Assembly: GCA_023701365.1 (NCBI GenBank)
Contig: JAMPXD010000006.1
Span: 1-32,000, forward strand
Direction of reading: 5' to 3'
Source of the DNA: Geobacteraceae bacterium
GTDB taxonomy: Bacteria; Desulfobacterota; Desulfuromonadia; Geobacterales; Geobacteraceae
DNA: 32,000 bases
The stretch's first letter is position 1. Every line of letters starts with the position of its first letter. The notes below the pieces were generated by a model. It was not told the DNA's origin, did not search any database, and saw nothing but the letters and a program-made list of their open reading frames with translations. Shown one piece after another: positions 3,973 through 26,607 of this stretch. The position numbers and the translations under genes were made by a program.

Positions 3973-4190
3973 TTTACGAATAGCTCATTGGCAATTGCGT
4001 AACATGCTGTTATTTATAATATTAATGATATAATATTGTCTTTTTTCAGATGAGCTCAAAAAATATGCGGCGATATTTCGTCGGCTGCCGCGACCGTCGA
4101 ACCATTCGGGCCGACATGTTCAAGCGATAACGGGCGGGATTTTCACGGAAATACTAGGGAAGAGCTTTCCGGAACCGGCGTCGGGAGATA

Positions 4191-4223
4191 GACGATATAT
4201 CGTCGCACTGACGATATATCGTC
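4191..4223. promoter_or_regulatory. Two identical 14-bp perfect palindromes (GACGATATATCGTC) spaced by 5 bp; candidate dimer-binding operator or enhancer (UAS)
   Basis: GACGATATATCGTC at 4191-4204 and again at 4210-4223, each its own reverse complement. They lie about 220-250 bp upstream of the sigma54 promoter and about 175 bp upstream of the small plus-strand ORF. Confidence 0.5.
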
Positions 4224-4398
4224 TCTCCGAGGAACATCTCACGGGTCAGCCCCGCCGGGGGCCTTGAGCCACGGCGGTTTTTCTTGACACTGGGGGTGGA
4301 AAAAAGTACTTTTCGTTAACGGATCTTCAGGAGAGGACACATGGTAATTGCATTCTTCAGCGGTAGAAAACGGGACCGAAGGGGAAGCGGAATTAAGT

Positions 4399-4548
4399 AT
4401 GTCCCCGGAATTCCTGCCCAAAACGGCGTTGCGTGAGCAACTGAAAGCCGCCGGGGGGCGCTGGAATCCGGAGGAACGTGTCTGGCGGGTCTGTTTTGGT
4501 GCGATTCGGGGTGACACGACACTGGTGGAACGGATCGTGAGGGAGTAG
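4399..4548 (+). CDS. Small hypothetical protein with a DUF5710-like motif (possible mobile-element remnant)
   Basis: 49 aa from the ATG at 4399; the ORF track extends it to a TTG at 4348. It contains LKAAGGRWNPEERVWRV, which resembles the K-x-x-G-A-R-W-D/N-x-x-x-K/R-x-W-y-V motif I associate with DUF5710 domains of plasmid/ICE primase-type proteins. GGAAGCGGA is a possible SD. Confidence 0.4.
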   Translation: MSPEFLPKTALREQLKAAGGRWNPEERVWRVCFGAIRGDTTLVERIVRE

Positions 4549-4589
4549 GAGGCAAACCGGGGTACGATGCGAGCAGACCGAACCGGCAG

Positions 4590-4746
4590 GTCAGGTATAC
4601 GGAGAATAAGTCACCTATACCGGTTACCAGCTCTTACCAAGGAAAAGCGGGATAAAGCCACGTATATAGGTGACTGTCAGGTTCCTTATATACGGCACTG
4701 TTTACGTATATAGGTGACAAGTCACTTATATACGGATACCGGTGAC
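4590..4746. repeat. Iteron/operator-like array: about 7 copies of GTCAC(C/T)TATATACGG in both orientations
   Basis: Forward copies at 4590-4602, 4610-4623, 4676-4695 (with an internal insertion) and 4721-4735. Inverted copies at 4661-4674 and 4705-4718, plus a partial copy at 4736-4746. An exact 15-nt repeat (acgtatataggtgac) occurs at 4660-4674 and 4704-4718. Copies 4705-4718 and 4721-4735 form a 14-bp-arm palindrome with one mismatch, 38 nt upstream of the next ATG. Confidence 0.6.
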
Positions 4747-4773
4747 TAACGAGTTGTGCAAGGAAGTTTAAAA

Positions 4774-5565
4774 ATGACGCTACTAATAAACCAGATACAT
4801 GTTGATGCTGAGAAAAACGATCACTTTTGGATAGCGGCGGCAGACGAATGGCTATCAAATTCGAAGGGGTTTCACTCAATAAAAAGGAAAATATTTCCGT
4901 TCAAGAGACTTAACTGCTGCATTTCATACTTTGGACTTGCTGCATACAAGATAAATGGAAAGGATATTTATATTGGTGATTTAATACAAAAATTTATTGC
5001 CAATGACTCTCTTTCGCAAACCATAAGAGATTTTTCGTGCAATATTAAAACCCACCTAAACTCGAAGGTTCCTAACACAGTGCTCTCCCAGGAAGGTTCT
5101 GGTTTTCATATTTGTGGTTTTGAATCGAATGGTCTTCCAGTTCTTTATCATTTTTCCAATATTAGCGGGATGAATGACATTTTCTATGGAACTAATTCAA
5201 GCACATATAACGATGTAACTGAGGACTTTATTGGAAGAGACGCTAATAATTTTGGCTATGATCCGAACAATTTAACTTTTTCTAAAAGTGGCACCTTCGA
5301 ATATAGAAATGGCGATTTGTCTATACATGTCAATCTCTCGAAAGATTTGTTGAGTACTTTGAAAAAAATCCCTGAATACGGGAACTATGTCATTTTAAAA
5401 GGGCCTTATCACTATGCCAAAATGATTGATATGCTTTATAAAATCATTATCAAGATTCAGAAAGAGTGGGCGAAGAAACAACGTATCGGCGGGAAAAATA
5501 CTATTTTGATAATAAAGAAAACTGGCATCGAAGTGAAGAAACGAGGGAAATGGAGCCGTCTTTAG
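4774..5565 (+). CDS. Hypothetical protein, AT-rich; possible divergent proteasome-beta/HslV-like N-terminal-nucleophile (Ntn) hydrolase
   Basis: 263 aa from the ATG at 4774, with AAGGAAG SD 6 nt upstream (the track start at 4756 is less likely). A roughly 790-nt open frame in visibly AT-rich DNA is unlikely by chance. Motif order resembles proteasome beta subunits: M-T at the N-terminus, FWIAAAD, KIFPF, ISYFGLAA, GSGFHICGFESNGLPVLYHFSNISG, and IGGKNTILIIKKTGIEV near the C-terminus. Confidence 0.75.
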   Translation: MTLLINQIHVDAEKNDHFWIAAADEWLSNSKGFHSIKRKIFPFKRLNCCISYFGLAAYKINGKDIYIGDLIQKFIANDSLSQTIRDFSCNIKTHLNSKVPNTVLSQEGSGFHICGFESNGLPVLYHFSNISGMNDIFYGTNSSTYNDVTEDFIGRDANNFGYDPNNLTFSKSGTFEYRNGDLSIHVNLSKDLLSTLKKIPEYGNYVILKGPYHYAKMIDMLYKIIIKIQKEWAKKQRIGGKNTILIIKKTGIEVKKRGKWSRL

Positions 5566-5732
5566 CCCAACCCGCGGCGGCACTCGGTCTCCGCTTCGCT
5601 CCGCCGGTGCGCCTTGTGACGTTCGACAGAAGACAGAAAAATGAAGACATATGACCAGCGGTGAGGGAAAAAGGCAAAGGAACTGTTCAGCGGGAGAAAG
5701 TTTCCAGAGTAGAGGCGGTATTGCAGGAACCG

Positions 5733-6071
5733 CTAATGGCCGTGTGCTACGCATTCCGACAGCAGGTCGATGATCCAGGCGTTGATGCTTTTGCCATGCG
5801 CGGCAGCTTGAGCGGCAAGCCGTTCATGCAAGGCAGGGGGCACTCGCAAGTTGAATTTTCCAGAGAAATGCTTGCGAGGCTCAACTCCCTCCTCGGCGCA
5901 CATTTCCAGGAAAGCTTTCAGCGAAATCTCACCCTCTTTCCGAAGTTCATCAACCGTGGTAGCATAGAAATCCGCTCCACCGTTAATTCCGACGAACTCA
6001 CCTCGGAACATGTTGATCTCCGGATCAAAGGAAATGACTGCCTGGTAACCGTTAATTTCCATATTGTTCAT
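5733..6071 (-). CDS. hicB: Type II antitoxin, HicB family (C-terminal ribbon-helix-helix)
   Basis: 112 aa. The HicB-like N-terminal fold pattern (YQAVISFDPEINMFRGEFVGINGGADFYATTVDEL) is followed by a RHH-like tail (FNLRVPPALHERLAAQAAAHGKSINAWIIDLL). It overlaps hicA by 4 nt (ATGA). Confidence 0.85.
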   Translation of the reverse strand: MNNMEINGYQAVISFDPEINMFRGEFVGINGGADFYATTVDELRKEGEISLKAFLEMCAEEGVEPRKHFSGKFNLRVPPALHERLAAQAAAHGKSINAWIIDLLSECVAHGH

Positions 6072-6322
6072 GGTTTCACCCCATTATCTTCAAGCCACTT
6101 GCGGATGGAGGTCACTGCCCCTTTATCGGTATCTGGCGATGGATGTGGGCGATGAAATACCCGTCGATCACCAAAAAGCCGAACGCCGACGCGGGACCCC
6201 TCCCGCTCGGTGGTCTCTGCCCCAAGCTCCCGAAAGAGAGCCACGATATCCGGCCATTGAATATTGCCGGGGACAGGATGGGCAAAGATCGATTCAAGTG
6301 TTTTATGATGCTTTCGTTTCAC
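6068..6322 (-). CDS. hicA: Type II toxin, HicA family (mRNA interferase)
   Basis: 84 aa with a GTG start at 6322 and an in-frame TAA 9 nt upstream. Pattern KTLESIF...W.DI..L...LG....EG.GSRV......FHRPHP...DKGAV..IRK.L as in the longer HicA subgroup. Toxin-first order with a 4-nt overlap onto hicB. Confidence 0.8.
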   Translation of the reverse strand: MKRKHHKTLESIFAHPVPGNIQWPDIVALFRELGAETTEREGSRVGVRLFGDRRVFHRPHPSPDTDKGAVTSIRKWLEDNGVKP

Positions 6323-6328
6323 AAGATA

Positions 6329-6357
6329 TTAGTACCACATTGCGGTACCATCGTCAA
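6329..6357 (-). promoter_or_regulatory. Possible sigma70-type promoter with GTACC-N8-GTACC operator-like repeat for hicAB
   Basis: The minus strand reads TTGACG-N17-TACTAA ending about 6 nt before the GTG, which would imply a very short or absent leader. The spacer contains GGTACCGCAATGTGGTAC. No SD is visible. Weak call. Confidence 0.3.
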
Positions 6358-6700
6358 CATAAAAACTGTCAAACTACTCGCGACAGACGGTCGGCTTCGC
6401 CGCCGCTGCGCTCTCCCCAGTTGGCGTGAAAGGGGGGTTTCTGGGGTGGGGTTTCTGGGGTCGGACCAAGCTAACGGGCTGTAATTATAGAATTAACTTG
6501 CATTTTAAGCCTCCTTTTTCGCCTTAAAGCCACGTTTTTGATGGTAAAAAGGAGCCTTTAAGAGTTTCGGGGCAAATGAAGTTACCGACCAAATAGTTGG
6601 ACAACCACCGGGCGATAATGCCGCCCGAACGGGTCAACTGCTGGCTCGTTGGCGTGAAAGTGAATGAGAAAATAAATCTGTACATTTTGAGGTATTTCAA

Positions 6701-16259: not shown

Positions 16260-17879
16260 TCAATAAATCTGCTCTTCCTTCGGCACGTACCAGCGGATCA
16301 GGTTGTGGGAGATACCGGCCGGAGCCGGCTCGATCCCGCGAAACCGGGCGCTCACCGCGGGGAGCGCGTCCGGGACATAGAGGAAGGTGTAGGGCTGGTC
16401 CTGCGCCAGAATCTCCTGGATCCGCCAGTAGCAGCGCCGCCTCTTCTCCTGGTCGAAGGTGCCGCGCCCCTCTTCCAGGAGCCGGTCCACTTCGGGGTTC
16501 TTGTAGCCGATGAAGTTCAGCTCCTTGGGGCCGGTCTTGCTGGAATGCCAGATGTCGAACATGTCCGGGTCGGGGGAGATTGTCCACCCCAGCATGACCG
16601 CCTCGAAGTTCCCCTTGTCGATGAACTGGGAAAGAAACGAGGCCCACTCGATCACCCTGATCTTCACGTCGATCCCGACCTTCTTCAGGCGGCGCTGGAC
16701 GATCTGGGCGGTCTTGAGCCGCTCCGTGTTCCCCTGGTTGGTCAGGATGGTGAACCGGAACGGCTTCCCCTCCCTGACCAGAATCCCCTCGCCGTTGGTT
16801 TCCCGCCACCCCGCCTCGGCCAGGAGCTGCCGGGCCCGCTCCGGGTTGTACTCGAAATCCCGCACCTGCGGGTTGTAGGCCCAGGTCCCGGGCTTGTAGG
16901 GCCCATGGGCGACCTGCCCCATCCCGAGGAGGACGCCGTGGACGATCTCCGCCTTGTTGATGGCCGCGGTGAGGGCCTGGCGCACCCGCCGGTCGGCAAA
17001 GAGCGGGTGCCGGAGGTTGTAGCCGAGATAGGTGAAGGCGGACGCCGGGTAGCGGTACTTGTTGAAGCGGGCCCGGAACTCGCTGGTTTCGGTCTGGCGC
17101 TGGTACTGGACCGGGGAGAGTCCCATCATGTCGAGGGCCCCCGCCTTCAGCTCCATGTACATGGTGGAGTTGTCAGGGATGATTCGGTAGATGTAGCGGT
17201 CGATCCAGGGCCTCCCCTCGTAATAGTCCCGGTTGGCTTCCAGGGTGATCTTCTGCCCGGCGACCCATTCCTTGAAGGTATAGGGCCCGGTCCCCACCGG
17301 CCGGCGGGCGAGCTCGCTGGTGGTGATATCCTTCCCTTCCAGGAGGTGGGCGGGCAGAATTGCCATCCCCCACGATTCCAGGGCCGGCGCGAACGGCTTG
17401 GCATAGGTGACCCGGAAGGTATGGAGGTCAGGAGCCACGGCGCTCTGTACCTGCTTGAAGGCGTCGGCATAGGCGGTGGGGGTCTTGGGATCGATGGTGA
17501 CGCGGTAGGTGTACATGACGTCGCGGGAGGTGAACTCTTGGCCGTCGTGCCATTTCACCCCCTTGCGGAGGTGGAAGGTGATGGTCAGCCCGTCGCCGGA
17601 TACGTCCCACGACTCGGCGAGCTCCCCCTCCAGGTTCAAGTTCTTGTCGTACCGGACCAGGCCGTTGTAGATCCTGCCGGCGACCTCATGGGAAGCGTTG
17701 TCGGAGGCGAGCAGGGGGAGCAGCGTCGAGGGTTCGCCGATGGAGCCGACCACCAGGGCATCGCCTTGGGCAGGCGTGCCCGGGCCGCGCTGGACGGGGG
17801 GCGCCGCCTTTCTCCCGCCATCACATGCAGCGAGGAGGAAAAGGGCGATCAGCAGGGAGGCGAGCCACCCTGTCCTCAT
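16260..17879 (-). CDS. ABC transporter substrate-binding lipoprotein, family 5 (OppA/DppA/NikA-like)
   Basis: 539 aa. Lipoprotein signal with lipobox (LFLLAAC). Family-5 SBP pattern throughout (e.g. LVRYDKNLNLEGELAESW, WHDG, GPY). The start overlaps the TPR gene stop by 4 nt (ATGA). Confidence 0.92.
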   Translation of the reverse strand: MRTGWLASLLIALFLLAACDGGRKAAPPVQRGPGTPAQGDALVVGSIGEPSTLLPLLASDNASHEVAGRIYNGLVRYDKNLNLEGELAESWDVSGDGLTITFHLRKGVKWHDGQEFTSRDVMYTYRVTIDPKTPTAYADAFKQVQSAVAPDLHTFRVTYAKPFAPALESWGMAILPAHLLEGKDITTSELARRPVGTGPYTFKEWVAGQKITLEANRDYYEGRPWIDRYIYRIIPDNSTMYMELKAGALDMMGLSPVQYQRQTETSEFRARFNKYRYPASAFTYLGYNLRHPLFADRRVRQALTAAINKAEIVHGVLLGMGQVAHGPYKPGTWAYNPQVRDFEYNPERARQLLAEAGWRETNGEGILVREGKPFRFTILTNQGNTERLKTAQIVQRRLKKVGIDVKIRVIEWASFLSQFIDKGNFEAVMLGWTISPDPDMFDIWHSSKTGPKELNFIGYKNPEVDRLLEEGRGTFDQEKRRRCYWRIQEILAQDQPYTFLYVPDALPAVSARFRGIEPAPAGISHNLIRWYVPKEEQIY

Positions 17880-19582
17880 TTATCACCGATCTCGGTCTTG
17901 ATTTTCCTGATCTTCTCCGCCACGTCCTTGCGCTCCGGATCGAGCTCCAGCGCCTTGCGGTAGAGGGGGAGGGCCTTGCGGTATTCGTGCCTGGCAAAAT
18001 AGACCTCAGCCAGGTGCGCGGCAACGGTGGCGTCATCATCGACCAGCTCCATTGCCCGCTCCAGGTTCAGGATTGCCTCGTCGTAGCGTTTCAGCTTGAA
18101 ATATACCCAGCCGAGGCTATCCCGGATGAAACCGTCGTCAGGGCGAAGGCTGGCCGCCTTCTTCAGGTACTGGAGGGCCTCGTCGAGGTTGGTCCCCATC
18201 TCGGCATAGGTGTAGCCGAGATAGTTGAGCGCCTGCGGGTCGTCCGGGGTCAGGGCGATGACCTCCTTCATCCGGGCGATCGACTCGCTTTTCTTGCCCA
18301 TCTTGTCGTACAAGATGCCGATGCGGAAGATGATCCGCGTGTCGGCGGGGAAACGTTTTTCAATGTCGGTGAGGACCCCCAGCCCCTCCTCATGCCGCTC
18401 CATCGACTCGTAGAGCGCCGCGAGGTGCAGATGAAGCTCGATCCGCTCCGGCTTTCCGGTGATGGCCTCCCTGAGGAGCGCAACACCCCGCTCCGGCTCC
18501 CCCTTGTCCTTGTAGAGGAACGCCAGATGCCCGACCGCTTCCAGGTAGTTGAAGGCTGCGGGAGGAATCTTCTGCAGTTCCTCGATGGCACGCCCCGTGT
18601 CCCCCTTCTCCTCGTAGGCAGTGCCGAGATAGAGCCTTATCTGATGAGCGTTCGGTTCCTTGCCGAGAATTTCCGTGAACTCCTTGACGGCGTCGTCGTA
18701 ACGCTCCAGTTCCATGTAGATCAGGCCGATCTTTCTGTTTGTTTCCAGCCCGCCGTAGCCGGAGGCTGCCAGCTTCCGCAGCAGGGAGAGCGCATCCGGC
18801 AGGCGCTGCTGCCGGATGTATAACTGGGCGAGGTGCTGCATCACGTTGACGTTCGCGGGATTCACCTCGATGAGCTGCTCGTACGTCCGGATCGCCTCTT
18901 CATGGAGCTCCTGGGTCTCCTGGGAGATGGCGAGGTCTATCAGTGCCTGCTCGAAATCGGGTTTGAATTCGATCGCCTTCTTGTAGTAATTGACCGCCTC
19001 CCTGGAGAGCTTCATCTGGTCGTAGGTCTTGGCCAGATAGTAATAACCGAGAGCGGAGTCCGGCACGGTCTTGATCAGCTCCTTCAGCGTGTTGACCGCC
19101 TCTTCGTATTCGAACAGCTTCACATAGGTGATCGCCAGGTGGAGAGCGACTTCTTCCTTTTCGGGATTCAGCTCCCTGGCCTTCTTGTAGTGGACGACCG
19201 CTTCCCTGTCCCTCTTCATCCCCATCAGCAGATTGCCCGCGAACATACGCGCCGCCATGTTGTCCGGGTCCAGGCTGATGGCCGCTTCAGCGGCAGCGAG
19301 GGCCTCGGTGGGCCGGTTCATCTTCAGGTAGACATTTGCCAGCGCCAGCTGGAGGTGCGGCGAGTTGGGGTCTGCCTCCACGGCAGCCTGCAGGAGCGCC
19401 AGGGCTCCCTCCAGATCGCCCTCGATCAGGTGGAGCCGGGCCTGGGAATAGAGGTAGAGGGTTCTTGAGTCGGCGATGTTCAGGGCCGGCCCGGCAGCTG
19501 GGGGATCGCTCACCCGGTTCGCGGCACAGCCGGACATCAGGGCGAATACGGAGACAATTGCCATCAGCTTCGTCAGTTTCAT
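17876..19582 (-). CDS. TPR-repeat lipoprotein
   Basis: Preferred start is the ATG at 19582 (MKLTKLMAIVSVFALMSGC with lipobox LMSGC); the track start at 19621 adds 13 residues. There are about 14 tandem 34-residue TPR-like units (A..YL..G....A...Y.KALELDP). Confidence 0.85.
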   Translation of the reverse strand: MKLTKLMAIVSVFALMSGCAANRVSDPPAAGPALNIADSRTLYLYSQARLHLIEGDLEGALALLQAAVEADPNSPHLQLALANVYLKMNRPTEALAAAEAAISLDPDNMAARMFAGNLLMGMKRDREAVVHYKKARELNPEKEEVALHLAITYVKLFEYEEAVNTLKELIKTVPDSALGYYYLAKTYDQMKLSREAVNYYKKAIEFKPDFEQALIDLAISQETQELHEEAIRTYEQLIEVNPANVNVMQHLAQLYIRQQRLPDALSLLRKLAASGYGGLETNRKIGLIYMELERYDDAVKEFTEILGKEPNAHQIRLYLGTAYEEKGDTGRAIEELQKIPPAAFNYLEAVGHLAFLYKDKGEPERGVALLREAITGKPERIELHLHLAALYESMERHEEGLGVLTDIEKRFPADTRIIFRIGILYDKMGKKSESIARMKEVIALTPDDPQALNYLGYTYAEMGTNLDEALQYLKKAASLRPDDGFIRDSLGWVYFKLKRYDEAILNLERAMELVDDDATVAAHLAEVYFARHEYRKALPLYRKALELDPERKDVAEKIRKIKTEIGDK

Positions 19583-19858
19583 GGGTTTCCCGATGCGAAA
19601 AAAACACCAGACGCATGTCAAAGATGGTTCGCGTCAGTCACGAACTCTTTGCGACGCCTGGTATTTGGGTGGTTTTCACGGTTGAGCGGGGGAGTCTGGG
19701 GGAATCACCCTCATCCGCCGTCAATCTGTTTTTATTACACGCTGTTTATCTAAAAAGCTAACACAAATCAAAAGGAGCGTCAAACAATAATCTCTGTTGT
19801 TTCTTGCGATAATCGGCCGGTATGATATCGTAAATAATAATGCCGCAAAGGATTCCGA

Positions 19859-21421
19859 ATGGAACAGAGGACTCTAAAATCACTCCTTAAACCCTCGGCA
19901 TACCCGGAAGCCACCACCTCAGTCCGCCTCGTTCAAACGCACGTCTCGTTCATCTTCATCACCGACAATTTCGTCTACAAAATCAAGAAGCCGGTCGATT
20001 TCGAATTCCTGAACTTTACCACCCTCGACCGGCGCCGCTTTTACTGTAATGAAGAGGTCCGCCTCAACCGCCGCCTCTGCCCGGATATCTATCTGGGTGT
20101 TGTGGAGGTGCGGGAATCCTCCGGCGGCGCAATGATCGACGCGGAAGGGCCGGTGATCGACTACGCGGTGAAGATGAAAAGGCTCCCCGAGGAGCGGATG
20201 CTCGACCGGCTGCTCCGCGCAGGCGAGGTGTCCGACGGCGACATCAGGCGGATTGCCGGCACCATCGCCGAGTTCCACCTGAACGCCGGCCGGAGTGAGG
20301 AGATCGACAGCTACGGCAGAGTGGAGAGGATCAGGTGGAACTGGGACGAAAATTTCCAGCAGATCGCCGGTTTCATCTCCGTCACCATCGGCAACCGGGA
20401 TCTGCTGACCATCAGGGAGTGGGTGGAAAAGTTCCTGGCGGAACAGGAAGGGCTCTTCGCCAGCCGGGTCTCCCAAGGGTTCATCAGGGAGTGCGACGGC
20501 GACATCCATACGGAAAACATCTGCCTTGCCGACCAGGTCTGGGTCTTCGACTGCATCGAGTTCAACAACCGCTTCCGTTACTCCGACACCGCAGCCGACA
20601 TCGCCTTTCTCCTGATGGATTTCGATTTCCATGGCCGGCCCGACCTTTCCGGGGTGTTTCTGAGCGAATACGTCGCCATCACCGGGGACCGGGATATCTG
20701 CCGGCTCCTCGATTTCTACAAGACTTACCGGGCCGTTATCAGGGGGAAGGTGGAGAGTTTCCGGCTGCGCGACCCGCACATACCGGAAAACGAGAAGCAG
20801 GCCGCCAGGGAGAGGGCGATCCGCTATTTCCGCCTCGCCCGGGGCTATGTCATCCGCCAGCGGCTCCCCCCCACCCTGATCATCACCTGCGGCCCGATGG
20901 GGAGCGGCAAAAGCACCGTAGCAGCCGGCCTCTCCCTTGAGCTGGGGATCGAGGCGGTCTCGTCCGACCGGGTGCGCAAGGAACTCGCAGCCGTCCCGGA
21001 ATATTCCCATGATTTCTCGGCATACGGCACAGGGATCTACAGTGCGGCGTTCACCGAGGCAACCTACGGCGAGTTGCTGGCCAGAGCGGAGCAAGCCCTG
21101 GCAGGGGGGCGGAGCGTCATCATCGATGCCACCTTCCGCAGGAGGGGAGAGCGGGACCGCTTCCGCGCCCTCGCCGGCAAATTTTCCGCCCCTTTCCGGA
21201 TCATCCGGACGACCGCCCCGGAAGATCTCCTGAGAAAGCGGCTCGAACAGCGGCTGACGAGCCCTCGCGAGGCCTCGGACGGCAGATGGGAGCTGTTCCG
21301 GAAGCAACAGGAGGAGTTTGAGCCGTTGGGACAGGATGAGCCGAATCAGATTTCTCTCGACACTTCCCTTCCGCTGCATGATACTATCAACACGATTCTG
21401 CATGCCCTGGGGATACTATGA
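19859..21421 (+). CDS. Fusion protein: kinase-fold (aminoglycoside-phosphotransferase-like) domain plus P-loop kinase (AAA_33-like) domain
   Basis: 520 aa. The N-terminal roughly 330 aa carry catalytic-loop-like DGDIHTENI and FDCIEFN. The C-terminal part has Walker A GPMGSGKST. AAAGGA SD. The stop overlaps the next gene (ATGA). Confidence 0.85.
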   Translation: MEQRTLKSLLKPSAYPEATTSVRLVQTHVSFIFITDNFVYKIKKPVDFEFLNFTTLDRRRFYCNEEVRLNRRLCPDIYLGVVEVRESSGGAMIDAEGPVIDYAVKMKRLPEERMLDRLLRAGEVSDGDIRRIAGTIAEFHLNAGRSEEIDSYGRVERIRWNWDENFQQIAGFISVTIGNRDLLTIREWVEKFLAEQEGLFASRVSQGFIRECDGDIHTENICLADQVWVFDCIEFNNRFRYSDTAADIAFLLMDFDFHGRPDLSGVFLSEYVAITGDRDICRLLDFYKTYRAVIRGKVESFRLRDPHIPENEKQAARERAIRYFRLARGYVIRQRLPPTLIITCGPMGSGKSTVAAGLSLELGIEAVSSDRVRKELAAVPEYSHDFSAYGTGIYSAAFTEATYGELLARAEQALAGGRSVIIDATFRRRGERDRFRALAGKFSAPFRIIRTTAPEDLLRKRLEQRLTSPREASDGRWELFRKQQEEFEPLGQDEPNQISLDTSLPLHDTINTILHALGIL

Positions 21422-21678
21422 AAAATGAGCTGAAACGGACATTGTTGAAGCGCTTCCATCTTACGGAAATATGGGTGATCTTCTTCATCCTCGGGATAAT
21501 CATGATGAATTATCCTTTTGTTCACATATTTTACAAACCACGCCAGATCTTCGGGATACCGGCCTTCTTTCTCTATCTCTACCTCGGCTGGCTGATCTCC
21601 ATTTGCGTAATCTACCTCTTCGTCAAAGCCACTGACCTGAATGAGGGAAAAAACAAAGACAAAGGGGAGCATCGCTGA
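21418..21678 (+). CDS. Small 2-TM membrane protein, translationally coupled on both sides
   Basis: 86 aa with two hydrophobic helices (IWVIFFILGIIMMNYPFVHIF; IPAFFLYLYLGWLISICVIYLFV). ATGA overlap with the upstream gene, and TGATG overlap (1 nt) with the downstream SSS-domain gene. Confidence 0.7.
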   Translation: MKNELKRTLLKRFHLTEIWVIFFILGIIMMNYPFVHIFYKPRQIFGIPAFFLYLYLGWLISICVIYLFVKATDLNEGKNKDKGEHR

Positions 21679-24600
21679 TGCTGAGCGTACAACTCGTCGC
21701 AGCCTGCTCCCTCTTCTATATCGCCCTCCTGTTCATGGTGGCCTACTTCGCCGACAAAAAGCAGGAACAGGGGCAAAGCATCATCTCCAACCCCCACATC
21801 TATTCGCTTTCCATAGCGGTCTATGCCACCGCCTGGACCTTTTACGGGAGCGTCGGCAAGGCCGCCACCACTGGTTTCGACTTTCTATTGATCTACCTCG
21901 GTCCCTCCCTGACCGTATTCAGCTGGTGGTTTCTCCTCCGCAAGATCGTCCGGATCAGCAAGGAAAACAACATCACCTCCATTGCCGACTTCATCAGTTC
22001 GCGTTACGGCAAATCCCAATGGCTGGGCGCCATCATCACCATCATCGCCATCCTGGGAATCATGCCGTACATCGCCCTGCAGCTCAAGGCCGTTTCCACC
22101 ACTTTCTCGATCATCACCGGCCACCCGGATATCCACCTGCTGTTTCAGGGCGGGAGCTTCCTCCCCTCCCCCCAGCCCGGTTTCCTGTCCGCCCTTCTGC
22201 TGAGTATTTTCGGGATCGTCTTCGGCGCCCGCCACCTGGTTTCTTCAGAACGGCACGAGGGGCTGGTAGCCGCCATAGCCGTCGAGTCCATCGTCAAGCT
22301 GATAGCATTCATGTCGGTCGGCGTTTTTGTCACCTACTTCGTATTCGACGGCTTCTCCGATATTTTCTCCCGCCTGCAGGCGAGGGACCCGGCCCTGCAC
22401 GACCACCTGACGACCTTCGGGGAAGCGGGGGAGGTTTCCTATTCAAACTGGTTCACCATCCTCTATCTGTCGATGGGGGCGATCATCATGCTCCCCCGCC
22501 AGTTTCACATCCTGGTCATCGAGAACTCCAGCGAGGCGCATATCAAGGATGCCATGTGGCGCTTCCCCGCCTACATGTTCCTGATCAACATTTTTGTCGT
22601 GCCGATTGCGCTGGGAGGCATCCTCCTCACCGGCAGCAATAGCGGCGCCGATTACTTCGTCCTCACCCTCCCCCTGAGCAGCGGCCATCCCTGGCTGGCG
22701 CTGCTCGCTTTCCTGGGTGGATTTTCCGCTGCCGCCGGGATGGTCATGGTCGAATCGGTAGCCATTTCCACCATGTTTCTCAACCACCTGGTGATGCCGA
22801 TCATAGTAAAGCTGAAGCCGCGTAGCTGGTTTTCCGTGCTGCTGATAAACCTGAAGCGTTTCGGCATTTTCCTGGTTGTTTTTCTCGGCTACCTCTATTA
22901 CGGCATCGTCGGTGAAACCTACATGCTGGTAAACATGGGGCTGATCTCTTTTGCCGCAGCGGCCCAATTCGGGCCGGCGCTGATCGGCGGTCTCTACTGG
23001 CGAAGGGGGAACAAGGCCGGCGCCATCACCGGCATCGTCCTCGGCTTCGTCATCTGGTTCTACACCCTGATGGTCCCCTCTTTCGTCAAATCGGGGTGGT
23101 GGCAGAGCGATATCCTGGAAAAAGGCCCGCTGGGGCTCGATCTCCTGAGGCCGACCGAGCTTTTCGGCCTGACCGGTCTGGACATCTGGACCAATGCCAT
23201 GTTCTGGAGCATGTTGTTCAATATCGGCAGCTACCTTGCCTGTTCGATCATCCTCCCCCAGGATGACACGGAAAAAGAGCAGGTAATAAAATTCGTCGAC
23301 GTATTCAAAGAAGTGCAGGAAGAGGTGCCGTGGGAGACCAAAAGGCTTACCAAGCCGGTCACCGTCATGCAATTTGTCAACCTGATGACCAAGTTCATCG
23401 GCGAAAGCCAGTCCCACTCAGCCATAGCCGAATACCTCGGGGACGGGGAGATAGATGAAAAGGGGGGGGTGTCGGAATTCGAGCTCCCCCGGCTCAAGCG
23501 TTTTATCGAGAAAACCCTGGCCGGCTCCCTCGGCGGTGCCGCGGCAGGAGCGATCGTGGAGAGTTACCTGTCTGACATCGGCTCGAAGATGGAATCTGTC
23601 TACGATATCTTCAGCACCGTCCGCTCAGAGCTGTCAGAAAGCCGCGAGGCGCTCTCCGTGCGCCTGCGGGCCTCGGAAATAATGAACCGGACCCTGGACC
23701 TCTCCATCATCATGTACGACCTCCTTGAACTTATCCGGAAGGAATTCAAGTTCGACCTTGCGGTCATCCGGCTCATCGATGCGGAGGGTAAGCTGGCCAC
23801 CCGCAGTTACAGCGGCACGCCGATCCCCTCCATAATCAAAAGGGAGATAACCCCTGACATAAATACCTACATAGGTGACGCCTTCCTGTCGAACAGGCCC
23901 GGTTTCCTGAACGATACCCGGCACCATACCAAATCTGAATCGAAGGAGCTGATAGAGCGGGAGGGGATCCGCTCGTTCGCCCATATCCCGATAGCCCGCG
24001 AAGGGGAACCACCGGTCGGGGTCCTCTCGGTATTCTCCAGCTCTATTATCGGTCTGTACACCCAGCCCTTCATCGATCTGCTCGCAAGCCTCGCCGGCCA
24101 GCTGGCCCAGGCAGTCAAGATAGATTCGGAGATGAAGGCAAAGGAGCGGGAGAGGCAGCAGAAGGAGCTGGCCCTCCTGGAAAACGCCCGGGTGGCGAAG
24201 GAGATGGAAATCGCAAAACAGATCCAGCTCTCCCTCCTCCCCTCCTCGCCGCCGGCATTGACAGGAACGTCCTTTGCCAGCCGCTGCATCCCCGCAACCC
24301 ATGTGGGGGGGGATTATTACGACTTCTTCCAGCGTGGCGACGAGATCGTTGACATCATCATTGCCGATGTCTCCGGGCACAGCGTGGGGGCGGCCCTGAT
24401 CATGGTCGAGACGCGCAGCGTCCTGCGCGCCCAGATCCCCTCCACCAACAGCACCGGCGCAATCCTCGCCATGCTCAACGAACTGCTCTACGAAGACCTG
24501 ACGAGCGCCGAGCTGTTCATCACCATGTTTTTTATCAAATACGACGCGCGCAGCCGCCTCCTCACCTACTCCAGCGCAGGGCACAACCATCCCCTGCTGT

Positions 24601-24920
24601 ACCGGCCCGGTGCGCTTTCCTGCATCGAACTGGACGCCGAAGGGCTGATCATCGGGGTAAAGAGAGGAGTGGCGTTTGAAGAAAGGAGCCTGCAGTTGCA
24701 GCAGGGAGACATCCTGCTCATGTACACCGACGGCATCACCGAGGCCCAGAATTCGGCGGGGGAATTGTTCGGAGAACGGCGGCTCTGCCAGATCCTGGCA
24801 TCTGCCCAATACGAATCTCCCGAGCTGCTGATCGACCGGATTCTCGATGAAGTGGCGGCTTTTACCGAGACCCTGCCGCTCCAGGACGATGTCTCGATCG
24901 TGATCATGAAGGTGATTTAA
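21678..24920 (+). CDS. Sodium:solute-symporter (SSS/SLC5)-like membrane domain fused to GAF and a PP2C/SpoIIE (RsbU-type) Ser phosphatase
   Basis: 1080 aa. Residues 1 to about 525 are polytopic, with an N-terminus like SSS-type sensor domains (YSLSIAVYATAWTFYGSVGKAATTGFDFLLIYLGP). A GAF-like region spans about aa 660-815. A coiled coil follows. PP2C motifs: GGDYYDFF, ADVSGHSVGAAL, YSSAGHNHPLLYR, LLMYTDGITEA, DDVSIVIMKV. AAAGGGGAG SD. Confidence 0.9.
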   Translation: MLSVQLVAACSLFYIALLFMVAYFADKKQEQGQSIISNPHIYSLSIAVYATAWTFYGSVGKAATTGFDFLLIYLGPSLTVFSWWFLLRKIVRISKENNITSIADFISSRYGKSQWLGAIITIIAILGIMPYIALQLKAVSTTFSIITGHPDIHLLFQGGSFLPSPQPGFLSALLLSIFGIVFGARHLVSSERHEGLVAAIAVESIVKLIAFMSVGVFVTYFVFDGFSDIFSRLQARDPALHDHLTTFGEAGEVSYSNWFTILYLSMGAIIMLPRQFHILVIENSSEAHIKDAMWRFPAYMFLINIFVVPIALGGILLTGSNSGADYFVLTLPLSSGHPWLALLAFLGGFSAAAGMVMVESVAISTMFLNHLVMPIIVKLKPRSWFSVLLINLKRFGIFLVVFLGYLYYGIVGETYMLVNMGLISFAAAAQFGPALIGGLYWRRGNKAGAITGIVLGFVIWFYTLMVPSFVKSGWWQSDILEKGPLGLDLLRPTELFGLTGLDIWTNAMFWSMLFNIGSYLACSIILPQDDTEKEQVIKFVDVFKEVQEEVPWETKRLTKPVTVMQFVNLMTKFIGESQSHSAIAEYLGDGEIDEKGGVSEFELPRLKRFIEKTLAGSLGGAAAGAIVESYLSDIGSKMESVYDIFSTVRSELSESREALSVRLRASEIMNRTLDLSIIMYDLLELIRKEFKFDLAVIRLIDAEGKLATRSYSGTPIPSIIKREITPDINTYIGDAFLSNRPGFLNDTRHHTKSESKELIEREGIRSFAHIPIAREGEPPVGVLSVFSSSIIGLYTQPFIDLLASLAGQLAQAVKIDSEMKAKERERQQKELALLENARVAKEMEIAKQIQLSLLPSSPPALTGTSFASRCIPATHVGGDYYDFFQRGDEIVDIIIADVSGHSVGAALIMVETRSVLRAQIPSTNSTGAILAMLNELLYEDLTSAELFITMFFIKYDARSRLLTYSSAGHNHPLLYRPGALSCIELDAEGLIIGVKRGVAFEERSLQLQQGDILLMYTDGITEAQNSAGELFGERRLCQILASAQYESPELLIDRILDEVAAFTETLPLQDDVSIVIMKVI

Positions 24921-25024
24921 CACAAAAAAGTCGAGAAATTACAGGAATTCAGGTACAATAGAATGAGAAAATAAATTCAATCGGTCCGGCCACCCGTGCC
25001 GGGCCTGTGTCAAAGGAGCACTGC

Positions 25025-25360
25025 ATGAACCTGAAAACCGAAGAAAAGAACAATATCGTGGTCATTTTCGTCAAAGAGGAACGGCTTGACGCCCACAATT
25101 CCGGCGAGTTGAAAGTGGAGATGCAGAGACTTTTCGTGGAGGGGAAGAAAAACGTCCTTGTCGATCTCTATGAGGTGCGTTTTATCGACAGCTCAGGGCT
25201 CGGCGCGCTGGTCTCCGGTTTCAAGAACGCCATTTCAAACCAGGGGAACCTGAAGCTTTCCAGCCTGCAGCCCCAGGTGAAGTCCATGTTCGAGCTGACC
25301 AGACTGCATCGGGTATTCGAAATATTCCCTTCTGCACCGGACGCATTGGAAAACTTCTGA
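25025..25360 (+). CDS. STAS-domain anti-sigma-factor antagonist (RsbV/SpoIIAA-like)
   Basis: 111 aa from the ATG at 25025, with AAAGGAG SD 7 nt upstream (the track GTG at 25007 is less likely). The conserved phospho-acceptor context FIDSSGLGALV is present. Confidence 0.88.
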   Translation: MNLKTEEKNNIVVIFVKEERLDAHNSGELKVEMQRLFVEGKKNVLVDLYEVRFIDSSGLGALVSGFKNAISNQGNLKLSSLQPQVKSMFELTRLHRVFEIFPSAPDALENF

Positions 25361-25375
25361 TAAGGCGAGGTTACC

Positions 25376-25804
25376 ATGGAGAAGAACCTGATCGAAGTGG
25401 ACATCAAGGTCCCCAACCAGACCCGCTATCTGAGCCTCATCGGTAGAATAGGTGAAGATATAGCCAAGGAGGTGGACAAGTATGCCGGTGACAGGGAGAC
25501 CCTGGCCTACCACCTGAACCTGGTCCTGACCGAGGCCATGGCAAACGCCATAAAATACGCGCGCGCCGGCGACCCGGATACGATGGTGCACATCTTCATC
25601 AATATCTCCCCGGAAGAAATCCTGATCAAGGTCTACGACAAGGGCCAGGGCTTCGACATCAACACCATCCCCGCCCCGAACTTCGAAAAGCTGGAGGACC
25701 GGGGGCGGGGAATCTTCATCATCAGGTCACTGATGGATTCCGTAAGCTACCGCAAGATCCGCTGCGGCAATGTGCTGGAGATGTCAAAAAAATTGAAAAA
25801 ATGA
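25376..25804 (+). CDS. RsbW/SpoIIAB-like anti-sigma Ser kinase (HATPase_c)
   Basis: 142 aa. N-box LTEAMANAIKYA, G1 box YDKGQGFD and G2 box GRGIFIIRSLMD. It starts 15 nt after the STAS gene. Confidence 0.85.
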   Translation: MEKNLIEVDIKVPNQTRYLSLIGRIGEDIAKEVDKYAGDRETLAYHLNLVLTEAMANAIKYARAGDPDTMVHIFINISPEEILIKVYDKGQGFDINTIPAPNFEKLEDRGRGIFIIRSLMDSVSYRKIRCGNVLEMSKKLKK

Positions 25805-25818
25805 GGAGCGGCGCCGTC

Positions 25819-26607
25819 TCAGCGCCCCTTATCCCGGCTCCAGCACCTCCGGATCATCCACATCCCCCCGACCGCCATGGGGAAACTGAGCAGCTGCCCC
25901 ATGGAAAAGCCCCCCAGAATAAATCCGAGCTGAACGTCAGGCTCCCGGAAAAATTCCACGAAAAAGCGAAACGCCCCGTACAGGGCGATAAAAGTCCAGA
26001 AGATCACCCCCTTGGGCCGCTGCTTGCGCGCCAGTGTCCATAGTACGATGAATATGACCGGCCCTTCCAGAAAGGCCTCATAGAGCTGGGAAGGATGCCG
26101 CGGCAGGTTCCCCGCCTGCGGGTCAGGGAAAACCATCCCCCACGGGACATCGGTCACCCTGCCATAGAGCTCGCCGTTTATGAAGTTCCCGATCCGCCCC
26201 AGTCCGAGCCCGATCGGGGCCGTCAGGAAGCCGACGTCCGCCATGGCGAGGAAATCGAGCTTCTTTTTCCGGACAAACCAGAGCCCCCCCAGGAGCGCCC
26301 CCACCAGGCCGCCATGAAAGGACATTCCCCCCTCCCAGACGGCGAAGACCTTCAGGGGATGGGCAAGGTAGTCGGACAGGTTATAAAAGAGCACGTAGCC
26401 TGTTCTTCCGCCGACTATCACCCCCAGTGCCACGGCGAATATCATGTCCGCAACGTCATCCCTGCTCAGGGGGATCTTCCGCCTCCTGATCTCCGCCAGG
26501 ATGACGAAATAGGCGGCGACAAAGCCGATAACGTACATGAGGCCGTACCAACGGAATTCCAGGGGTCCCAGACGGAAGAAGACCGGGTCAAGGTTCGGGA
26601 ATTGCAT
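25819..26607 (-). CDS. lgt: Prolipoprotein diacylglyceryl transferase
   Basis: 262 aa. Hallmark Lgt motifs: FRWYGLMYVIGF, GGRTGYVLFYN, WEGGMSFHGGL, GRIGNFINGELYGR, RHPSQLYEA. Confidence 0.95.
   Translation of the reverse strand: MQFPNLDPVFFRLGPLEFRWYGLMYVIGFVAAYFVILAEIRRRKIPLSRDDVADMIFAVALGVIVGGRTGYVLFYNLSDYLAHPLKVFAVWEGGMSFHGGLVGALLGGLWFVRKKKLDFLAMADVGFLTAPIGLGLGRIGNFINGELYGRVTDVPWGMVFPDPQAGNLPRHPSQLYEAFLEGPVIFIVLWTLARKQRPKGVIFWTFIALYGAFRFFVEFFREPDVQLGFILGGFSMGQLLSFPMAVGGMWMIRRCWSRDKGR

Follow-up and report, generated by a model that had tools for sequence, protein, structure and literature searches.

A CbrA-type SLC5 sensor domain joined to a SpoIIE/PP2C phosphatase and encoded with a STAS protein and an RsbW-like kinase in Geobacteraceae

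Gene block and junctions

Here, we describe a block of plus-strand genes in a 32-kb stretch of DNA from an uncultured member of the Geobacteraceae (positions 1 to 32,000 of contig JAMPXD010000006.1, hereafter the window), in which 26 open reading frames (ORFs) were scanned for protein families. Four genes lie head to tail. They encode a small two-helix membrane peptide of 86 aa (21418..21678, recognized from its sequence junctions and hydropathy), a sensor-phosphatase of 1080 aa (21678..24920), a single-domain STAS protein of 111 aa counted from its ATG (25025..25360), and an RsbW/SpoIIAB-like GHKL serine kinase of 142 aa (25376..25804), and a fifth gene, of the AAA_33 family, is coupled to them upstream. 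From its N terminus, the sensor-phosphatase consists of an SLC5/SSS domain, a STAC-like region, a GAF domain, a helical linker, and a PP2C phosphatase domain, as delineated by Pfam, NCBIfam, and PDB matches together with AlphaFold2 and Foldseek. Relatives were sought among 1.84 billion cluster representatives; the 150 best 50%-identity representatives were examined, and 90 loci were fetched.

The peptide gene and the sensor-phosphatase gene overlap, stop codon on ATG (TGATG), and are translationally coupled. The stop codon of the AAA_33 gene overlaps the ATG of the peptide gene (ATGA). The phosphatase and STAS genes are separated by 104 bases (24921-25024). A GTG at 25007 is a further possible start of the STAS ORF; a ribosome-binding site, AAAGGAG, precedes the ATG at 25025. 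The kinase gene ends 14 bases from the end of the convergent lgt gene (25819..26607, minus strand; Pfam LGT, 3.9e-84).

A scan for promoter and terminator consensus sequences gave only weak matches, at 21357-21385 and 24931-24959, to which no evidential weight was given. The second is a sigma-70-like match (TCGAGA-17-TACAAT) within the gap between the phosphatase and STAS genes. In relatives, this gap ranges from 14 to ~290 bases, so that some lineages may have a separate promoter for the STAS and kinase genes. Riboswitches (e.g., GEMM) were absent from an Rfam scan of the whole window.

Domains and conserved motifs

Residues 1-526 of the sensor-phosphatase (21678..23255) form an SLC5/SSS domain of the LeuT fold with 13 predicted transmembrane (TM) helices. 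In a PDB sequence search, residues 9-469 matched 10ED_A with an E-value of 2.4e-72. In this entry, SLC5-STAC of Pseudomonas putida CbrA was solved by cryo-EM as a complex with the small peptide CbrX (PMC13022988). Two NCBIfam SSS models were also matched (MctP, 6e-10; VC_2705, 2.4e-9), and precomputed PF00474 matches were present in many orthologues. The AlphaFold2 model (mean pLDDT, 76.6) contained 13 TM helices, including the broken helices typical of the LeuT fold, and Foldseek matched it to SGLT1/2, NIS, vSGLT, SiaT, and CHT1, with target TM-scores of 0.6-0.72 for all of these but CHT1. The 13-TM N-terminal domain thus belongs to the SLC5/SSS family and is specifically of the CbrA type.

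The histidine-pocket residues of CbrA were largely retained (Y49, W53, F69, Y73, and F425), and K207 aligned with CbrA K196, the lysine at the Na2 site. This lysine was conserved in 120/120 orthologues and in 132/136 representatives of the histidine-kinase type. Three pocket positions deviated from CbrA (S53T, A56T, and F248S), and the deviations were common to the whole subfamily. Since a lysine occupies the Na2 position, coupling is probably to H+, not Na+, and since three pocket positions differ from CbrA, the ligand is probably not histidine. Taken together, the residues suggest that a solute other than histidine is bound, with coupling to H+. That the pocket is conserved speaks for a functional solute site and against a role as a membrane anchor alone.

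The SLC5 domain is followed by a four-helix region at residues ~555-635 (23340..23582), with the motif EKTLAGSLGGAAAGAIV, that was delineated from AlphaFold2 helices (563-574, 576-587, 602-618, and 620-633) and a family profile. The family profile, built from 26 members, gave a single collinear match, to the STAC domain of CbrA (residues 526-594), with a weak E-value of 0.17 and E..L.G..G(P/A)..A aligned. This pattern corresponds to LGPx(x)A, the STAC signature (PMC4834066); the window protein carries LGGAAA, with Gly in place of the signature Pro, and its relatives have GP. Pfam yielded only noise for the linker/STAC region. The region between SLC5 and GAF is likely a STAC, although the sequence does not prove it. 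In CbrA, the STAC bundle docks on the cytoplasmic face of the transporter and has been proposed to relay its motions.

A GAF domain occupies residues ~656-815 (23643..24122). Pfam GAF_2 was matched at residues 673-813 (1.9e-12), and the domain matched 2QYB at 4.5e-70, with ~65-70% identity and a Foldseek target TM-score of 0.89. 2QYB is the crystal structure of the GAF domain of the Geobacter sulfurreducens orthologue, solved by structural genomics in 2007 and described as from a "putative membrane protein." In the AlphaFold2 monomer model, a continuous helix of ~58 residues (796-853; 24063..24236) is predicted to run from GAF to the phosphatase. Helical linkers between GAF, PAS, or REC and PPM domains have been proposed as a general switch of RsbU-type phosphatases, and as the basis for sensor-domain exchange among phosphatases, kinases, and cyclases (PMC12143880).

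The protein ends with a SpoIIE/PP2C (PPM) domain at residues ~860-1080 (24255..24920), which was identified by Pfam SpoIIE (1.6e-51 at residues 891-1079), by alignments, and by Foldseek matches to RssB, SiaA, Rv1364c, and SpoIIE. Its four metal-binding motifs (GGD879YYD, AD897VSGH, YTD1018GITE, and QD1070D1071VS) aligned with those of SpoIIE, and the metal-binding Asp residues were also conserved in the alignment with RssB, Rv1364c, and SiaA. In an alignment of 14 sequences with 36-100% identity, the motifs were invariant. Neither HisKA nor HATPase_c was detected in the protein by Pfam.

The STAS protein was identified by Pfam (4.5e-19) and by NCBIfam TIGR00377, "anti-sigma factor antagonist" (72.8 bits, above the curated cutoff of 53.45). 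Its FIDSSGLG aligned with FMDSSGLG of SpoIIAA and YMDSAGLG of TM1442, and the predicted phospho-acceptor is Ser56 (FIDS56SGLG). The DSSGLGALVSGFK block was invariant in 18 orthologues. The kinase matched Pfam HATPase_c_2 (1.9e-22), and its closest solved relative was Bacillus subtilis RsbW (6M36; 5.3e-6); SpoIIAB also aligned. The N box (EAMANAIKYA), G1 box (DKGQGF), and G2 box (GRGIF) aligned with those of 6M36 and were kept in 19 orthologues. The kinase scored 49.6 bits against the NCBIfam equivalog cutoff of 145 for RsbW and 38 bits against that of 135 for SpoIIAB; it is therefore a member of the family, not an orthologue of either. The STAS protein likewise fell short of the NCBIfam equivalog cutoffs. 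The E-values of the domain matches exclude chance.

These results agree with an earlier note on this DNA, which had placed these genes at 21678-25804 with a convergent lgt next door and had described an SSS/SLC5-type N-terminal domain followed by GAF, a coiled coil, and a complete SpoIIE/PP2C domain, together with a STAS antagonist bearing DSSGLG and an RsbW-type kinase with N, G1, and G2 boxes. What it called a coiled coil corresponds to the continuous helix predicted in the monomer model. Its inventory was incomplete in two respects: the STAC-like region and the coupled upstream peptide had been overlooked.

Relatives of the peptide, the sensor, and the block

The upstream peptide has two hydrophobic segments, at residues ~17-38 and ~48-70. 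With the window peptide as the query, a relative was found immediately upstream of the SLC5 gene in 81/90 fetched loci, whatever the output domain or phylum of the SLC5-STAC gene. The fetched loci include 59 of the histidine-kinase type, from Beta-, Alpha-, and Gammaproteobacteria, Desulfobacterales, Actinomycetota, and others; examples of the peptide lie just upstream of the SLC5 gene at 2283-2483 in locus L033 and at 6768-6974 in locus L050. The peptides are 60-90 aa long and share the motif LG..L.NYP.L..F....GIP.LY.Y.F..W.

Pfam gave only noise for the peptide, and no PDB match, CbrX included, was obtained with the single sequence or with a 30-sequence profile. The CbrX peptides from metagenomic cbrA loci are 58 aa long, and their genes overlap cbrA by 17 nt. 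In a profile-profile comparison (hhalign), the peptide and CbrX families were collinear over 47 columns, with a weak score (P=4.7e-4; probability, 32%). Homology is suggested but not established by this comparison; the equivalence in position (upstream of and overlapping the sensor gene) and in topology (two helices) is clear. Earlier descriptions restrict CbrX to Pseudomonadaceae. The wide occurrence of the small peptide suggests that CbrX is not peculiar to Pseudomonas, and peptides of this kind may be a general subunit of SLC5-STAC sensors.

Full-length orthologues of the sensor-phosphatase were 65-82% identical across Geobacteraceae, the highest identities being 82% in metagenomes and 72% in Geobacter sp. 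DSM 9736. The block of four genes (peptide, sensor-phosphatase, STAS, and kinase) was kept in 17 further Desulfuromonadales lineages, belonging to Geobacteraceae, Geothermobacter, Geopsychrobacteraceae, Desulfuromonas, and Desulfuromusa. It persisted even where the main protein was 48% identical, although the genes downstream changed; for example, lgt was missing there in L004, L013, L014, and L022. Neither a sigma factor nor any other constant extra gene was inserted in the block in any lineage examined. From the adjacency of the genes and this conservation, we infer that the STAS protein is the substrate of the phosphatase.

Over the SLC5-STAC part (residues ~6-650), very many relatives with 40-47% identity were found, carrying other C termini. 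Phosphatase output was rare among the 150 best representatives. P0121, P0123, and P0128 share the architecture of the window protein (53, 49, and 37% identity), P0137 has an RsbW-like HATPase_c_2 domain fused after the phosphatase, and P0141 has a phosphatase output and no recognizable GAF. HisKA-HATPase_c stood behind the same sensor, SLC5-STAC with or without GAF, in 59/90 fetched loci and in most of the 150 representatives. In P0126, P0127, and P0194 and in loci L027, L028, L031, L032, and L050, the sensor is shared through GAF and the protein ends in HisKA-HATPase_c. In many others of the histidine-kinase type, such as L033, no GAF or PAS match follows the SLC5-STAC part. The occurrence of the same sensor with both outputs marks it as an exchangeable input module. 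These closest nonorthologous relatives also support the proposal of the earlier note that a phosphatase here takes the place of a histidine kinase.

The SLC5-...-PP2C proteins span very different genomes (29% G+C in L003, 45% in L008, and 73% in L007). A paralogue in L045 (7001-11127; Geobacteraceae metagenome-assembled genome "SKOL") is 58% identical over residues 1-848 (SLC5-STAC-GAF). Its C-terminal 230 residues had no Pfam match at 1e-4; H-box-, N-box-, and G2-like motifs seen by eye suggest a divergent kinase. The next gene encodes a 294-aa protein with a receiver-like N terminus and no Pfam match. In databases, the family is named "SpoIIE family protein phosphatase," "sodium:solute symporter family transporter," or "IcfG."

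The AAA_33 gene (19859..21421; 520 aa) encodes a protein with a C-terminal P-loop kinase-like domain (Pfam AAA_33, 1.5e-30) and 330 N-terminal residues for which a whole-protein Pfam scan at E<=0.01 gave no match. The gene occurs in Geobacteraceae and in some relatives. Coupled as it is here, it was considered as a third partner and rejected as a core component: it is missing from L015, L016, L017, L021, L023, L025, and L026, where the other four genes are kept.

Directly upstream of the block, in the minus-strand stretch 16260-19621, lies a divergent gene for a TPR protein (581 aa; N terminus, MKLTKLMAIVSVFALMSGCAA), after which comes an SBP_bac_5/OppBC-type ABC transporter operon. The TPR gene adjoins the block in most Desulfuromonadales loci (L001, L002, L004, L011-L018, and L022-L026), even where the downstream synteny is lost; this neighborhood may reflect plain synteny or a functional link. 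The stretch at ~4000-8000 has a G+C content of ~0.46, compared with ~0.6 elsewhere in the window, and may be a foreign island. Its ORFs at 4756-5565 and 5661-6155 had no family match, and an RsgA-type GTPase gene lies at 6701-7783. A sigma-54-dependent activator (7803-9800, minus strand; PAS_4, GAF, Sigma54_activat, and HTH_8), 12 kb from the block, was the sole transcription regulator recognized in the window.

Proposed signaling, alternatives, and known systems

In the standard logic of a partner switch, the phosphatase dephosphorylates the STAS protein, the kinase re-phosphorylates it, and the free STAS protein binds the kinase or a target. We consider it probable, though far from assured, that the protein described here, in which a CbrA-type transceptor sensor is joined to an RsbU/SpoIIE-type phosphatase, serves as the membrane-anchored input module of such a phosphoserine switch. 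The 13-helix SLC5 domain would bind, and perhaps transport, a small solute, probably together with the co-translated two-helix peptide. Its conformational state would pass through the STAC four-helix bundle and GAF, and the signal would then travel along the ~58-residue helix to PP2C. The active phosphatase would dephosphorylate Ser56 of the STAS protein, and the RsbW-like kinase would re-phosphorylate it. Unphosphorylated STAS may capture the kinase and so free a kinase-held partner, or may itself act on a target; in either case, the target of the switch would be encoded elsewhere in the genome.

Several observations weigh against this reading. Pfam SSF gave no match to the N-terminal 528 residues, even at E<=10, so that the SSS assignment rests on the PDB, NCBIfam, and fold evidence. 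The STAC call leans on the weak profile match and predicted helices, with Gly at the signature Pro. Outside Desulfuromonadales, sensor-phosphatases of the same architecture lack adjacent STAS and kinase genes (L003, L008, and Desulfohalobiaceae L019 and L020), and pairing in cis is therefore lineage specific; for P0128 and P0141, too, no adjacent STAS or kinase gene was found. No candidate output was seen in any lineage examined. CbrA can signal without its TM domain if the soluble part is overproduced, and it requires its cytoplasmic PAS domain (PMC6591292).

The output is where a competing explanation has most force. The set could be an ordinary RsbU-RsbV-RsbW system, with the kinase serving as a genuine anti-sigma factor toward one sigma factor elsewhere on the chromosome. 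This possibility concerns output alone and leaves room for the input module favored here; we find it plausible without expecting it. As the earlier note had stated, no sigma factor is encoded nearby: a sigma-70-family domain was found in none of the 26 ORFs scanned across the window, and no sigma factor lay within ~8-10 kb of the block in the three related loci labeled with Pfam (L001, L002, and L004). That note had also named three observations that would count against its account, and for each the opposite was found: the N-terminal domain matched NCBIfam SSS models and the CbrA structure, the catalytic Asp residues were invariant, and no sigma gene was adjacent. The sole sigma factor gene seen in a related locus, an ECF-type one (Sigma70_r2) lying 4 kb upstream in L007, an actinobacterial-like locus, comes with a downstream partner gene of its own and was judged unrelated.

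Partner switches of proteobacteria and other bacteria commonly have targets that are encoded elsewhere or are not sigma factors (HsbR/HsbA, CrsR/CrsA, SypE/SypA, and BtrUVW), and the missing sigma gene is therefore less remarkable than the earlier note implied. RpoS, from a gene elsewhere, is under the control of CrsR-CrsA and HsbR-HsbA, and in Chlamydia RsbW governs the primary sigma factor; an anti-sigma role would be in line with these precedents, with the nearest solved relatives of the kinase being the anti-sigma factors RsbW and SpoIIAB, and with the STAS protein passing the superfamily cutoff for anti-sigma antagonists. Reference Geobacter genomes encode RpoD, RpoS, RpoH, RpoE, RpoN, and FliA only (PMC2700814). 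For a kinase that acts as an anti-sigma factor, the candidates would thus be RpoS, FliA, and RpoD, each plausible as the held partner. However, this set contains no SigB/SigF-type factor, the kinase is far under the RsbW and SpoIIAB equivalog cutoffs, and several switches use the STAS protein itself as an output on nonsigma targets. HsbA also binds FlgM and a diguanylate cyclase, and SypA, BtrV, and RbaV are STAS outputs with unknown or nonsigma targets.

On the input side, GAF could be the real sensor, of a cytoplasmic metabolite or nucleotide, with SLC5-STAC anchoring or localizing the phosphatase or tuning its kinetics. The truncations of CbrA point this way by analogy: the protein without TM domains, when overproduced, is still carbon responsive (PMC6591292; reviewed in PMC7918813). 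The high identity to 2QYB shows GAF to be well conserved, and GAF-PPM phosphatases without membrane domains, such as RsbZ, are known regulators. Nevertheless, the SLC5 pocket and the Na2-site Lys are conserved in orthologues and in relatives of the histidine-kinase type, which a mere anchor would not need, and in many of these relatives SLC5-STAC is the sole candidate sensor. We regard a main sensing role for GAF as unlikely. It is very improbable that the protein is primarily a transporter with the flow reversed, its cytoplasmic domains and the STAS/kinase pair regulating solute uptake: the discoverers of STAC did propose regulation of solute transport (PMC4834066), the CbrA SLC5 domain transports histidine, and STAS domains regulate transporters in the SLC26/SulP family, but SLC5 or SLC5-STAC of CbrA alone gives no growth on histidine, for which the kinase domains are needed, the PP2C domain is catalytically complete and has an obvious substrate in the adjacent STAS protein, and the interchangeability of the sensor with histidine-kinase outputs fits a signal output better.

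Among the closest known counterparts of the sensor-phosphatase is CbrA-CbrX of Pseudomonas (SLC5-STAC-PAS-HisKA-HATPase_c). Both have a homologous SLC5 domain with the Na2 Lys and most pocket aromatics, a four-helix STAC or STAC-like region after it, and a small two-helix peptide gene overlapping the start of the sensor gene. They differ in three pocket positions, in GAF here versus PAS in CbrA, in a peptide of 86 versus 58 aa with weak similarity, and in output, a PP2C serine phosphatase that would act on a STAS protein versus a histidine kinase that acts on a sigma-54 activator. CrbS/MxtR (acetate) and RpuS (pyruvate), compared here by description, belong to the same SLC5-STAC sensor family with transporter-like input and are histidine kinases, some of them hybrid. 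The uncharacterized SLC5-STAC-GAF-HisKA-HATPase_c proteins have an identical architecture through GAF (44-48% identity over residues 1-830) and the same upstream peptide gene; with their histidine-kinase output, they are a natural control for the domain swap.

On the output side, RsbU-RsbV-RsbW and SpoIIE-SpoIIAA-SpoIIAB of B. subtilis share the phosphatase, the STAS protein with DS(S/T)GLG, the GHKL kinase, and the gene order, and SpoIIE is likewise a polytopic membrane protein. In contrast to these systems, no sigma factor is present here in the operon or window, and the input is transporter-like instead of RsbT/stressosome or the membrane/FtsZ-binding region of SpoIIE. Chlamydia RsbU, with RsbV1/2 and RsbW, is also membrane bound and linked to metabolites, in the absence of SigB and with a target sigma factor that is not adjacent, but its sensor is a periplasmic ligand-binding domain rather than an SLC5 transporter fold. 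In HsbR-HsbA (Pseudomonas aeruginosa), CrsR-CrsA (Shewanella oneidensis), and SypE-SypA (Vibrio fischeri), the targets (RpoS, FlgM, a diguanylate cyclase, or unknown) are likewise not encoded with the switch, and the STAS protein can be the output; there, phosphatase and kinase are fused in a response-regulator-type protein with phosphorelay input, whereas here they are separate and the sensor is in the membrane.

An SSS+GAF+PP2C(+HATPase_c) architecture has been mentioned in passing for Actinobacteria (Henriquez et al. 2021, PMC7918813). An example of such an SSS-GAF-PP2C_SIG-HATPase_c fusion (P0137/L007, in the 73% G+C genome) also has a small upstream peptide gene. It differs in that the kinase is fused C-terminally and no STAS gene is adjacent, whereas the kinase of the window is a separate gene; P0137 matches the sensor-phosphatase with 40% identity over residues 1-686 only. 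No functional study of a Geobacter orthologue was found in the literature searched. All parts of the system are known families; a partner-switching phosphatase with transceptor-type input, SLC5-STAC plus a small peptide, has not previously been characterized.

Structural work on how a transporter-like domain informs a cytoplasmic enzyme that substrate is present has only just begun, with CbrA. PPM phosphatases, kinases, and cyclases have been proposed to draw on an "exchangeable toolkit." Here, the same sensor and peptide are naturally wired to both histidine kinase and PP2C, which lets the output independence of STAC/linker signaling be probed. As a tentative and rather doubtful extension, SLC5-STAC proteins and their conserved two-helix peptides may form a general two-subunit sensor with varied outputs, of which the phosphatase version in Desulfuromonadales would convert carboxylate or amino acid availability into STAS phosphorylation governing a global regulator (RpoS, for instance) or a nonsigma target. 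If so, metal-respiring Geobacter would possess a nutrient-to-lifestyle switch that works through serine phosphorylation and not through two-component signaling. The family is of interest as a natural output-swapping experiment and for the small, widely conserved subunit of SLC5-STAC sensors to which it points, and it would give the Geobacteraceae, which are relevant to metal reduction and bioelectrochemistry, a nutrient-sensing serine-phosphorylation pathway.

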